Position numbers and translations under genes: made by a program. The notes below the pieces were generated by a model. It ran no database searches. It saw only the letters and a list, made by a program, of their open reading frames with translations, and was not told the origin of the DNA. Positions 35,532-36,805 of a stretch of 64,000 nucleotides of DNA are shown here, piece by piece (positions within the stretch are counted from its first letter, which is position 1; the number at the start of each line of letters is the position of its first letter). Source of the DNA: Escherichia phage MirsaeidiM_Esher1; sequence record PQ438048.1; one strand, given 5' to 3'.

Positions 35532-36005
35532 ATGTTTCAAGTAAATGTCAATGTGCATAATAGTTACTCTGATTGTGAAACGTGTGGCTATAATTCATCT
35601 AATGTTGTTCGTATTAGTGGCGATTTAGGAGAAGCTTCTTTTGGAGAAGAAGCAAGTTGCTTTAGTGGTATGGATGCAGAATGGAATGATATTGCACATT
35701 GGTTAGTGAGCAAACTAAAAGAAAAAGAGAAACCATTTCCTACCCTGCTTGATCGTTCTCTTGTGGAAGATGCAGGTAAAGCATATGCAGACTATGCATA
35801 TGCAGACGGGAAATATTTGGAAGATGATAAGGCTAACCATTTGCTTTATGTTTACTATGAAGCTGAATCTGCCTACGATAATTATTATAGCATGTCTAAC
35901 ATCCTCCGTCTATTTGCAGAGTTTGATATTTATTTCGAAGTAGAATTTTCAGAAGATGATACTTACGAATATGATTCTTATGATCCATTTGAGGAGGACG
36001 AATAA
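35532..36005 (+). CDS. highly acidic hypothetical protein (157 aa)
   Basis: AGGAGGG RBS; D/E/Y-rich C-terminal half. Confidence 0.6.
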   Translation: MFQVNVNVHNSYSDCETCGYNSSNVVRISGDLGEASFGEEASCFSGMDAEWNDIAHWLVSKLKEKEKPFPTLLDRSLVEDAGKAYADYAYADGKYLEDDKANHLLYVYYEAESAYDNYYSMSNILRLFAEFDIYFEVEFSEDDTYEYDSYDPFEEDE

Positions 36006-36805
36006 TGCCAAGACGTGTATATTTTATTAGTGGTGCGGGACTAAGTGCTGACAGCGGAATCCAAACATTTCGCACAGAAACAGATTCTGGAAAGGCATTA
36101 TGGGATGAATATGATTTAACAGAAGTCTGTGACATTTTCAACTTCCGTGACGGTTATCAGCAAGAACAGGGTATTCCTGATGCTATGGGTGGCTTAGATG
36201 TGGAAGGATATAACCTCTACCGTAAAACTCACGACTTCTACAATAAACGTCGCGTGGAATTAGAGAAAGTTGACCCGAATCCAGCACATCTTCAGATTGG
36301 AGAATGGTTCGAAAAATACGGTGCAGAAAGGATTATTAACATCACTACTAACGTTGACGATCTATTAGAACGCGCTGGAATCGATAGAGAAGAAATATTG
36401 CACGTTCATGGTTTCTTGCCAGAAGTTGTTGTTGATAACAAAATTATCAAAGATGTGGGTTACGCAGCTATTGATGTAGACGATTACAAATATGTGAAGC
36501 CTAATGTGGTGTTTTTTGGTGAGAATGCACCACTCTACACAGACATGTATCACAAACTGGATCAACTAACATCACAAGATATGGTTATCGTTGTAGGCTG
36601 CTCTAACCAAGTAATCAACTTCAACTGGGAACTCTTCCCTGCCCTGAATATTGGGGTTAAGATGGTTGTAGTTAACCCAGGTTTGAATTTTGTAGAACAA
36701 ACTCTCTACGAAGAACGTGGAGTGCTTGTCTACCGAGAGAAAGCAGGAACAGTCTTCAGTGATGAAGGCTTTATCAAAATGGTTGAAGACCATTTAAACA
36801 AATAA
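36005..36805 (+). CDS. SIR2-family (sirtuin-like) NAD-binding protein, no zinc-ribbon module
   Basis: N-terminal FISGAGLSADSGIQTFR matches sirtuin GAGIS...GIPxFR motif; HG dipeptide (ILHVHG) present; no CxxC...CxxC. Confidence 0.65.
   Translation: MPRRVYFISGAGLSADSGIQTFRTETDSGKALWDEYDLTEVCDIFNFRDGYQQEQGIPDAMGGLDVEGYNLYRKTHDFYNKRRVELEKVDPNPAHLQIGEWFEKYGAERIINITTNVDDLLERAGIDREEILHVHGFLPEVVVDNKIIKDVGYAAIDVDDYKYVKPNVVFFGENAPLYTDMYHKLDQLTSQDMVIVVGCSNQVINFNWELFPALNIGVKMVVVNPGLNFVEQTLYEERGVLVYREKAGTVFSDEGFIKMVEDHLNK

Follow-up and report, generated by a model that had tools for sequence, protein, structure and literature searches.

A zinc-free sirtuin of a phAPEC8-like phage as a candidate NAD-dependent protein deacylase

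The ORF at 36005-36805 in a 64,000-nucleotide stretch of Escherichia phage MirsaeidiM_Esher1 (PQ438048.1; the whole stretch is hereafter the window) encodes what is apparently a catalytically intact and active member of a zinc-free clade of phage sirtuins. Judged from its sequence and modelled structure, its most likely function is that of an NAD-dependent protein deacylase, a reading to which we assign a probability of about one half. Zinc-free sirtuins are carried by ~2% of sequenced phage genomes, the T5 lineage included, and two incompatible predictions of their role are in print: a protein deacylase returning host enzymes such as Acs to activity, or a KptA-like enzyme that removes 2'-phosphates from RNA. 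Deciding between these predictions would reveal what large virulent phages do with the enzyme: alter lysine acylation in the host, or mend RNA that host defences have damaged. Our residue-by-residue comparison supports a preserved acyl-lysine pocket of class III; we also remove an acidic neighbour as a likely partner and document the exchange of Sir2 as a cassette between phage genera.

Family assignment and predicted fold

The window derives from a virulent phAPEC8-like myovirus, in which Sir2 lies at the end of a nucleotide-metabolism/replication gene block. The 266-aa protein, which reads MPRRVYFISGAGLSADSGIQTFR... and contains EEILHVHG, matches the Pfam SIR2 profile PF02146 over profile positions 1-178 of 180 (E=1.4e-20; 74.5 bits against a gathering cut-off of 24 bits) and PHROG 2162 over its full length (E about 1.1e-96); its assignment to the SIR2 family is far beyond chance. 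The best sequence matches in the PDB are Sir2Af2, CobB and SIRT5. The AF2 model (pLDDT 91.1, pTM 0.88) has the Rossmann domain and small domain that define the sirtuin fold, and in a Foldseek search of the PDB it retrieved CobB (1s5p/6rx*) first, with a TM of 0.82-0.85, and lysine deacylases at all of the top 50 positions. The best NCBIfam models are also all CobB-type deacylases. Scores nevertheless fall far under the curated CobB equivalog cut-offs (94.5 vs 243 bits; 79.7 vs 320 bits for NF040867; 66.7 vs 318 bits for NF001755), and the phage protein is therefore not a CobB ortholog. By sequence and predicted fold, it resembles the CobB/SIRT5-type lysine deacylases, not the defence NADases or SirTM. 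The first-pass annotation had recognised a SIR2-family protein from its NAD-binding motif and HG dipeptide and proposed profile searches and structure prediction as a check; the Pfam, PHROG, PDB and AF2 results bear out the family and place CobB/SIRT5-type deacylases nearest.

Conserved residues and the lost zinc module

The Sir2 gene and the features within it are as follows.

36005..36805, + strand: Sir2 ORF, zinc-free sirtuin of 266 aa (Pfam SIR2, PHROG 2162)
36032..36073, + strand: NAD-binding GAGLS motif and cofactor-loop F22/R23 (aa 10-23), invariant in 84/84 phage homologs and in CobB
36152..36220, + strand: insertion of ~22 aa (aa 50-72), in phAPEC8/phi92-like phages only; the most variable block between alleles
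36239..36250, + strand: Y79-N-K-R82, equivalent to CobB Y92/R95, the class III acidic-acyl recognition pair; invariant in 84/84
36344..36358, + strand: T114-T115-N116-V117-D118, equivalent to sirtuin TQNID with Gln replaced by Thr (alignment)
36407..36412, + strand: catalytic H135-G136 (alignment)
36419..36493, + strand: cysteine-free remnant of the zinc module (aa 139-163), predicted short beta-strands

Residues G10-A11-G12, F22, R23, N116, D118, H135, F171, E173 and N224 align with CobB and are invariant in all 84 phage homologs, as are S14, G136 and G172 of the GAGxS, HG and FGE motifs; the catalytic His, on whose presence in an alignment the earlier SIR2 claim had been staked, is H135. The positions of the CobB acyl pocket have equally constant counterparts (A76 to C42, I131 to V117, V187 to V168, Y92 to Y79 and R95 to R82, each in 84/84). 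At the A76 position, C42 supplies the small residue expected of class III, and Y79/R82 form the class III Tyr-x-x-Arg pair, which binds the distal carboxylate of succinyl- or malonyl-lysine.

The zinc ribbon of sirtuins is structural, not catalytic. The zinc cysteines of CobB (C155/C174/C176/C177) align to V143/Y161/Y163/gap in the phage protein, which lacks the Cys4 zinc-binding module of sirtuins; its two cysteines, C42 and C199, form no CxxC, in agreement with the earlier claim that a CxxC...CxxC module is missing. Thr115 stands in place of the TQNID Gln in 84/84 homologs, the sole replaced residue of the catalytic motifs, and the 'VYP' of CobB is 'VIN' in the substrate loop. Given these two replacements and the loss of the zinc module, the substrate cleft is remodelled and could bind a non-peptide. 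The same changes, and the distance from CobB orthologs, count against a deacylase, as does the position of the rV5-like, Mydo-like and Serratia BF Sir2 genes directly among RNA-end-healing or ADPr-processing genes, an adjacency that is the basis of the published RNA-repair alternative.

What the analysis establishes is the family, the fold, the conserved residues, the layout of the operon and the pattern of evolution; the chemistry and the protein substrates that we infer would be those of a canonical deacylase. With NAD+ and an acylated lysine bound, the latter in a protein of the host or the phage, His135 would assist the attack of the acyl oxygen on nicotinamide ribose C1', and nicotinamide and O-acyl-ADP-ribose would be released, leaving the lysine free. 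The Tyr79/Arg82 pair suggests that negatively charged acyl groups (succinyl, malonyl) may be accepted besides acetyl. A shorter, cysteine-free beta element appears to replace the zinc ribbon, and this element and the clade-specific insertion probably change the proteins recognised rather than the chemistry.

The acidic gene upstream of Sir2

Upstream of Sir2 is an ORF for an acidic protein, and the following features surround the two genes.

35445..35474, + strand: sigma-70-like promoter match, TTGACA-18-TATAGT with TG extended -10 (11/12, consensus match only), in the 3' end of the preceding ORF
35489..35513, + strand: terminator-like hairpin, 11 bp stem and T-run, dividing the gene pair from the upstream gene
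35522..35527, + strand: AGGAGG ribosome-binding site of the acidic ORF (sequence reading)
35532..36005, + strand: acidic protein, 157 aa, PHROG 9509; N-terminal beta-hairpin (invariant C15xxC18, plus C43), helical core and disordered D/E/Y tail (aa 145-157)
35991..35997, + strand: GAGGAGG Shine-Dalgarno of Sir2, within Glu-Glu-Asp codons of the acidic tail (sequence reading)
36813..36830, + strand: terminator-like hairpin GGGGCTTCGGCCCC and T-run, directly after the Sir2 stop codon

The acidic protein has a pI of 4.05, 22.9% D+E, 6.4% K+R, 10.2% Tyr and a net charge of -26, and only 2.7% of the window's ORFs of at least 100 aa are as acidic. Its neighbours are also acidic (pI ~4.6). At the junction, GAATAATG, the acidic stop codon TAA (36003-36005) and the Sir2 ATG (36005-36007) share A36005; the acidic ORF and its ATAATG overlap were thus correctly described beforehand. 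The hairpin after Sir2 is an annotated terminator in phage Schickermooser, where the counterpart of the upstream hairpin is an annotated ARNold terminator. The sigma-70-like match is oddly placed, just upstream of a terminator-like hairpin. The 1-nt overlap, the internal Shine-Dalgarno and the flanking hairpins support the suggestion that the two genes are co-expressed: the acidic gene is apparently transcribed and translated together with Sir2, yet is an independent neighbour.

It had further been proposed that the acidic protein is a partner or inhibitor of Sir2, and one could extend this to a substrate mimic or to a zinc module supplied in trans via CxxC...C(...C). The start-stop overlap with a Shine-Dalgarno inside the acidic tail, the bracketing of the pair by hairpins and the retention of the adjacency in Phapecoctavirus and Justusliebigvirus would suit such a role, as would the cysteines of the family (the invariant C15, C18 and C43, and a fourth, C-terminal Cys in most homologs) and the presence of another small zinc-binding protein (PF23903) before Sir2 in Serratia phage BF. 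However, the fourth Cys is absent from the window copy, and the two genes have discordant histories: acidic proteins 98% identical are paired with Sir2 alleles only 70% identical, and Sir2 alleles 96% identical with acidic proteins only 39% identical. In phage FKP3 the two lie on either side of an HNH gene, no Sir2 occurs within 24 kb of the full-length homolog GAP32_166, and the acidic family is missing from ~850 other Sir2-bearing phages. T5-like, Vibrio, KB57 and BF phages have unrelated genes in front of Sir2: hhalign comparisons of the acidic protein with these small genes gave probabilities <0.2%, so that hidden homology was rejected and the zinc-module-in-trans idea is left without homology support. 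A dedicated role in Sir2 function thus seems to us very unlikely, and the acidic gene is apparently a co-expressed neighbour that evolves independently of Sir2.

Distribution and exchange of Sir2 alleles

Homologs of the window Sir2 were found by tblastn in ~980 of 50,697 phage records, with T5-like phages as the most numerous carriers. A 2016 study of the Vibrio phages phiSt2, phiGrn1 and KVP40 (Skliros et al.; PMC5107563) already reported that their Sir2/CobB lacks the zinc site; it comprised in silico work and transcript profiling only, noted the conserved His and acyl-lysine tunnel, and proposed a deacetylase role. The phage sirtuin clade was defined in 2022, with a predicted role in RNA repair (Iyer, Burroughs, Anantharaman and Aravind; PMC9503650, section 3.7.3); the window Sir2 is 39% identical to the Serratia BF prototype of that work, 49% to the rV5-like and 53-58% to the T5-like. 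The view of the first-pass annotation that such an enzyme is unusual in a lytic phage finds no support in this record. Our literature search found no paper on the phAPEC8 Sir2, and no biochemical study of any clade member was found in the searchable literature. The Sir2 gene and its zinc-less state are already known, and finding it in the window is ordinary because the gene had been annotated before and GenBank contains identical copies; the annotated proteins of phages nieznany and KKP 3954 are 100% identical to the window Sir2.

What may be a new observation concerns a stretch of 47 kb in which the backbone is otherwise 97% identical: its largest allelic-replacement island is Sir2, whose old alleles are under purifying selection. 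Sir2 has been swapped by itself between phage genera, with a discordant history of the acidic gene. Positive selection as the source of this divergence was rejected: synonymous sites are saturated, and the divergent alleles have a dN/dS of 0.07-0.11. Such purifying selection indicates that the Sir2 gene is functional. One could imagine that Sir2 is a host-interaction effector whose target specificity comes from variable elements of its small domain, the insertion at aa 50-72 and the remnant at aa 139-163. Phages of different genera would then trade whole alleles like cassettes that match host factors or evade them, and Sir2 might, for instance, deacylate or ADP-ribosylate a particular protein of host defence or of the nucleoid. 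We consider this improbable; if true, exchangeable sirtuin modules for counter-defence or takeover would form a new class.

RNA repair or NAD+ consumption as alternative activities

The window encodes a whole RNA-repair set upstream of Sir2, on the same strand.

4550-4906, same strand as Sir2: cREC
5274-5825, same strand as Sir2: phosphoesterase
5827-6759, same strand as Sir2: Rnl1
6760-7164, same strand as Sir2: kinase
9280-10005, same strand as Sir2: MazG-like

In the published alternative (PMC9503650), the sirtuin would act like KptA/Tpt1: where anticodon nucleases of the host, or other nucleases that need no metal, have cut RNA, it would use NAD+ to strip the 2'-phosphate from the ends. 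The ADP-ribose cyclic phosphate so formed would pass to a cREC, 2H, Nudix or phosphoesterase partner, and an RNA ligase would then rejoin the RNA. The window Sir2 is homologous to all three prototypes (Serratia BF, rV5-like and T5-like), and its anion-binding Tyr/Arg pair could, in principle, accommodate a phosphate. Murica and KB57 have the gene directly next to Rnl1 ligase, cREC, P-loop kinase, phosphoesterase and MazG, and BF has it next to a Nudix-cREC fusion and a 2H/Acb1-like gene; a borderline HAD_SAK_2 ORF lies near the T5-like Sir2. In this phage, however, the repair module is ~29 kb away from Sir2, directly around which lie the acidic ORF, phrog_8514, a gene for a Dcm-like methyltransferase and small unknown ORFs, and the RNA-end-processing neighbourhood of the clade (Rnl, cREC, kinase, 2H, HAD, Nudix) is absent from the Sir2 locus. 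Phage nieznany keeps its identical Sir2 without the RNA ligase and kinase genes, and neither Rnl1 ligase nor cREC was found in T5-like phages at BLAST sensitivity; Sir2 is therefore kept without these RNA-repair partners. Across phage records, Rnl1 (607) and cREC (343) overlap Sir2 (980) in the Stephanstirm/Vequinta lineages only, and the rV5-like adjacency could be inherited synteny. The acyl-lysine pocket is fully conserved, and the protein is strongly acidic (net charge -19, with a clade median of -13, resembling CobB-S at -11), with no evident RNA-binding surface and no basic nucleic-acid-binding extension. Taken together, we regard a role in RNA repair as the main rival to the deacylase reading, possible but doubtful.

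The first-pass annotation had instead read the zinc-less architecture as that of an NADase or ADP-ribosyltransferase rather than a deacetylase, one that could modify host targets or the NAD+ pools drawn on by defence systems. Sirtuin chemistry can yield ADP-ribosylation, exchangeable allelic cassettes are a pattern often seen in conflict genes, and in Serratia BF Sir2 lies beside NAMPT, an NMNAT-like cytidylyltransferase, an Acb1-like 2H gene and Nudix, an island that looks like NAD salvage or counter-defence. No homologs of the BF NAMPT, NMNAT, 2H or Nudix genes were found in the window by tblastn, NAD+ depletion would harm the phage, and neither the window nor nieznany has NAD salvage genes. 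A defence-type identity was rejected after scans with the PADLOC defence-SIR2 models (no match at E<=0.1) and SIR2_2 (PF13289; E=0.038, 14.5 bits against a cut-off of 24.5); defence NADases are also absent from the top 50 structural matches, and no defence sensor or partner (SLOG, TIR, HerA, pAgo, large C-terminal domain) is fused to Sir2 or neighbours it. SirTM ADP-ribosyltransferases show the opposite pattern, keeping the zinc domain while QG replaces HG (PMC4518038); with QG and a macrodomain partner missing, and no macrodomain or GcvH-L/LplA2 operon link in the Sir2 neighbourhood, this identity was rejected as well. The alleles, moreover, are old and not diversifying rapidly. The evidence thus points away from the NADase or ADP-ribosyltransferase reading, which we hold to be very improbable.

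Comparison with known systems

The closest relatives of the window Sir2 are the members of the PHROG 2162 clade (T5-like, rV5-like, Mydo-like, KVP40-like and Serratia BF phages; annotated 'Sir2 (NAD-dependent deacetylase)'), which are 36-58% identical, have the same length, have lost the zinc cysteines and share the conserved motifs TTNVDD, DxGY, VKPNVVFFGE and GCSNQVINFNWELFP. Unlike these, the window Sir2 does not adjoin RNA-repair genes, is preceded by a lineage-specific acidic gene and carries the ~22-aa insertion confined to phAPEC8/phi92-like phages. Within the same clade, the Vibrio phiSt2/phiGrn1/KVP40 Sir2/CobB proteins (35-37% identity) keep the Pro of the V/I-x-P loop and have Ala at the TQN position, where the window Sir2 has Thr.

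Outside phages, E. coli CobB and human SIRT5 (class III; deacetylase/desuccinylase/lipoamidase) are the best sequence and fold matches and have the same catalytic residues, acyl pocket and Tyr/Arg pair, but identity is only ~26%, and the phage protein has a longer cofactor loop and no zinc cysteines. SirTM (class M, macrodomain-linked) shares the sirtuin fold and the use of NAD+, but has QG, a retained zinc domain and a macrodomain operon, whereas in the window Sir2 the dipeptide is HG, the zinc site is missing and no macrodomain gene lies nearby. The defence NADases (ThsA, DSR1/2, SIR2-HerA, SPARSA; SIR2_2) also lack the zinc ribbon and also have a Rossmann-type NAD site; the window Sir2, in contrast, is a stand-alone protein of 266 aa, encoded by a virulent phage and without a significant profile or structural match to them.

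The Sir2 gene and its acidic neighbour

The acidic gene and the Sir2 gene, which lies directly downstream of it, were found on the (+) strand at exactly the coordinates given in the first-pass annotation, with a hairpin at either end of the pair:

35489–35513, terminator-like hairpin, just 5′ of the acidic gene
35532–36005 (+), acidic ORF, 157 aa
35991–35997, Sir2 ribosome-binding site GAGGAGG, formed by Glu/Asp codons of the acidic tail
36005–36805 (+), Sir2 ORF, 266 aa
36813–36830, terminator-like hairpin, just 3′ of Sir2

The Sir2 protein begins with MPRRVYFISGAGLSADSGIQTFR and also contains EEILHVHG. 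Its assignment to the SIR2 family was upheld by matches to Pfam SIR2 (PF02146, E=1.4e-20) and PHROG 2162 ‘Sir2 (NAD-dependent deacetylase)’ (E=1e-96), and it is 100% identical to deposited proteins named ‘NAD-dependent protein deacylase / SIR2 family’. As first read, the zinc cysteine module is absent (two Cys in total, no CxxC). At the junction with the acidic gene, GAATAATG, the acidic stop codon (TAA) and the Sir2 start codon (ATG) share one A. Because of this overlap, the Sir2 ribosome-binding site in the acidic tail and the flanking hairpins, the pair looks like a two-gene expression unit; both hairpin sites carry a terminator annotation in one related phage. The terminal E-E-D-E of the acidic protein is encoded by the Sir2 Shine-Dalgarno, GAGGAGGACGAA (window 35991–36005). 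In other alleles the acidic ORF overlaps Sir2 by 13–16 nt, and its product has a conserved Cys at the end (EECQD); the window protein has no such Cys. A near-consensus sigma-70 promoter match (11/12, TG) in the 35445–35513 region ends 15 nt 5′ of the strong terminator-like hairpin, and a transcript starting from this match would enter the hairpin at once; the match could be due to chance, or the stem could be 5′ stabilising or an attenuator.

The upstream protein is indeed very acidic (pI 4.05, net charge −26; Asp+Glu 22.9%, Tyr 10.2%). Among window ORFs of ≥100 aa, just 2.7% have a pI ≤4.1, and the direct neighbours of the gene are likewise acidic (pI about 4.6). The protein falls in PHROG 9509, of unknown function, with no Pfam, NCBIfam or PADLOC matches. 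Its homologs are limited to some 130 phage records, nearly all of them Stephanstirmvirinae, and nine clusters of a 5.8-billion-protein collection; jumbo phage GAP32 has a full-length remote homolog (hhalign 98.3%), and the fold is matched by uncharacterised jumbo-phage proteins (Erwinia and RaK2-like phages).

Over the Sir2 region the DNA is 98–99% identical to Klebsiella phage ZCKP1 and Escherichia phages KKP 3954, AV126 and nieznany, all phAPEC8-like myoviruses of the genus Phapecoctavirus (Stephanstirmvirinae). At the window start, 222–788 (−), are three tRNA genes (Ser-GCT, Arg-TCT, Met-CAT), part of a phage tRNA cluster. Since tblastn found Sir2 homologs in 980/50,697 phage records, the sirtuin is common among phages, contrary to the first impression that it is unusual in a lytic phage. 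Homologs were found in Phapecoctavirus and Justusliebigvirus (65–100%), T5-like Demerecviridae (53–61%), Mydovirus and Vequintavirus (49–58%), jumbo phages such as Serratia BF (31–39%) and KVP40-like Vibrio phages (about 36%).

Exchange of Sir2 alleles between phages

Aligned with the Phapecoctavirus Schickermooser, window DNA is 95–100% identical on both flanks and drops to 60–74% exactly over the Sir2 ORF. The 47 kb shared by the two phages (97.4% identity overall) hold three substitution-type islands below 80% and no more, the Sir2 ORF being the largest (four consecutive 200-nt bins at 64–78%). The two other, small islands lie at window 32013–32213 and 22013–22400 (about 70–75% identity); roughly 1 kb at window 19400–20450, an HNH endonuclease ORF between nrdA and nrdB by the nieznany annotation, is missing from Schickermooser. 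Sir2 of Schickermooser and of the Justusliebigvirus W22 are 93.6% nt / 96.3% aa identical, whereas flanking genes share 56–75% nt. Because the acidic gene and flanks are so much less alike than Sir2, Sir2 must have been transferred between genera on its own.

At least four allele lineages (window, phAPEC8, Schickermooser/W22 and Klebsiella phage FKP3) differ by 18–32% in protein, with saturated synonymous sites (pS 0.69–0.86) and pN of 0.11–0.22. Differences cluster in the clade-specific insertion (aa 51–70), aa 101–110, aa 121–130 and the zinc-module remnant (aa 141–150); active-site segments are conserved. The alleles are old, functional and recombination-shuffled, not fast-evolving, and under purifying selection (dN/dS about 0.07–0.11, where computable). 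Because an HNH gene occupies the acidic/Sir2 junction in FKP3, the arrangement suggests that homing-endonuclease-driven gene conversion contributes to Sir2 exchange; the FKP3 ORF is a possible driver of local conversion at this junction in other phages.

That the acidic protein might be a partner or inhibitor of Sir2 had been proposed from the overlap of their genes. The co-expression part of this proposal holds, on the shared A, the embedded ribosome-binding site and the flanking hairpins; a dedicated partnership is improbable given discordant histories. Between the window and Schickermooser the acidic proteins are 98% identical but the Sir2 proteins just 70%, and between Schickermooser and W22, with their near-identical Sir2, the acidic genes share just 60% nt / 39% aa. 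FKP3 carries its HNH gene between the two (3480–4130 of its locus, L014), and in GAP32 no Sir2 lies within 24 kb of the acidic-family gene. In T5-like, Vibrio, KB57 and BF phages the gene directly 5′ of Sir2 is not related to the acidic gene, that of BF encoding another small zinc-binding domain (PF23903). The evidence says that the acidic gene is a co-expressed neighbour, not a dedicated partner.

Predicted activity of Sir2

By sequence, Sir2 comes closest to Sir2Af2, E. coli CobB and SIRT5 among solved structures, and its top NCBIfam matches are CobB-type deacylase models throughout, with scores far below equivalog cut-offs. Using 84 homologs, AlphaFold2 gave a confident model (pLDDT 91.1, pTM 0.88), its sole weak part being the cofactor loop (aa 24–30). 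All 50 best PDB structure matches are lysine deacylases, led by CobB (TM 0.82–0.85) and followed by Sir2Af1/Af2, SIRT5, Sir2Tm and Hst2. Residues were mapped to the host’s own CobB, from E. coli MG1655. Sir2 shares the GAG motif, F22/R23, N116, D118, H135-G136, F171-G172-E173 and N224; it keeps the CobB acyl pocket (A76→C42, I131→V117, V187→V168, F190→F171) and, as Y79/R82, the class III pair Y92/R95. Mapped catalytic, acyl-pocket and Y79/R82 positions are invariant in 84/84 phage homologs, among them the catalytic His of the HG dipeptide picked out in the first pass. Unlike CobB, Sir2 has Thr115 for the Gln of TQNID (84/84 homologs), V203-I204-N205 for V219-Y220-P221, and V143/Y161/Y163/gap for the zinc cysteines C155/C174/C176/C177, in a shorter, Cys-free beta element. 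Its cofactor loop is four residues longer, and an insertion of roughly 22 aa (aa 50–72) is carried by Phapecoctavirus and Justusliebigvirus Sir2 proteins. The likeliest mechanism, to which we assign a probability of about 0.5, is that Sir2 would carry out CobB/SIRT5-like NAD-dependent deacylation of lysines on host or phage proteins.

Zinc loss had been taken in the first-pass annotation to indicate NADase or ADP-ribosyltransferase chemistry. The inference is unsupported, because the dedicated sirtuin ADP-ribosyltransferases, SirTM, keep the zinc domain, carry QG for HG and are macrodomain-linked (PMC4518038); none of these features is present in the window Sir2, whose sequence and fold matches are deacylase-like, and we regard such a role as unlikely. 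A defence-type SIR2 is ruled against by the lack of any match in the PADLOC defence models and a sub-threshold SIR2_2 profile. The main rival, possible but doubtful, is KptA-like, NAD-dependent removal of RNA 2′-phosphates, predicted for phage sirtuins by Iyer et al. 2022 (PMC9503650) from neighbourhoods with RNA ligase, cREC, kinase, MazG, 2H, Nudix and HAD genes. The window Sir2 is homologous (tblastn) to all three of their prototype groups (Serratia phage BF, Escherichia phage V5/Proteus phage Mydo and T5-like SP15), and homologs of the genes flanking Sir2 in rV5-like/Mydo-like phages lie on the same strand:

4550–4906 (+), cREC (PF20274)
5274–5825 (+), calcineurin-like phosphoesterase
5827–6759 (+), T4 Rnl1-like RNA ligase (PF09511)
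6760–7164 (+), AAA_33 P-loop kinase
9280–10005 (+), MazG-like pyrophosphohydrolase

The presence of all five favours RNA repair, but they lie about 29 kb 5′ of Sir2, and nieznany, with an identical Sir2, lacks the ligase and kinase. Rnl1 (607 phage records) and cREC (343) overlap with the 980 Sir2 carriers mainly in Stephanstirm/Vequinta lineages, not in T5-like phages, which have just one borderline HAD_SAK_2 ORF near Sir2. For these reasons the published RNA-repair hypothesis, while possible, is not reinforced by the window genome. The window segments 4550–7164 and 9280–10005 (+) form a complete RNA-end-healing/sealing set, with a 118-aa ORF of unknown function within 4550–7164 (+); apart from the missing ligase and kinase, nieznany is near-identical to the window. 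The Sir2 homolog of Serratia phage BF lies within an NAD/ADPr island (812–6671 of locus L006) comprising an NMNAT-like cytidylyltransferase, NAMPT, a 2H gene, the PF23903 protein, Sir2 and a Nudix-cREC fusion. The BF gene annotated ‘RNA ligase’ is an Acb1-like 2H phosphodiesterase (PF23474, E=4e-15), and the island could be read as easily as counter-defence as RNA repair.

Comparison with known phage sirtuins

Biochemical work on a phage member of the family did not turn up in our literature search. Skliros et al. 2016 (PMC5107563) modelled a Vibrio phage Sir2/CobB on E. coli CobB: the zinc site is missing, also in KVP40, and the catalytic His and acyl-lysine tunnel are kept. They suggested that the phage protein deacetylates host enzymes such as Acs, and named T5 and others as Sir2 carriers. 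The window Sir2 is one more copy of this known, annotated, zinc-free phage sirtuin; only one element may be new: Sir2 alleles pass between phage genera like cassettes, a pattern that could point to host-specific targets.
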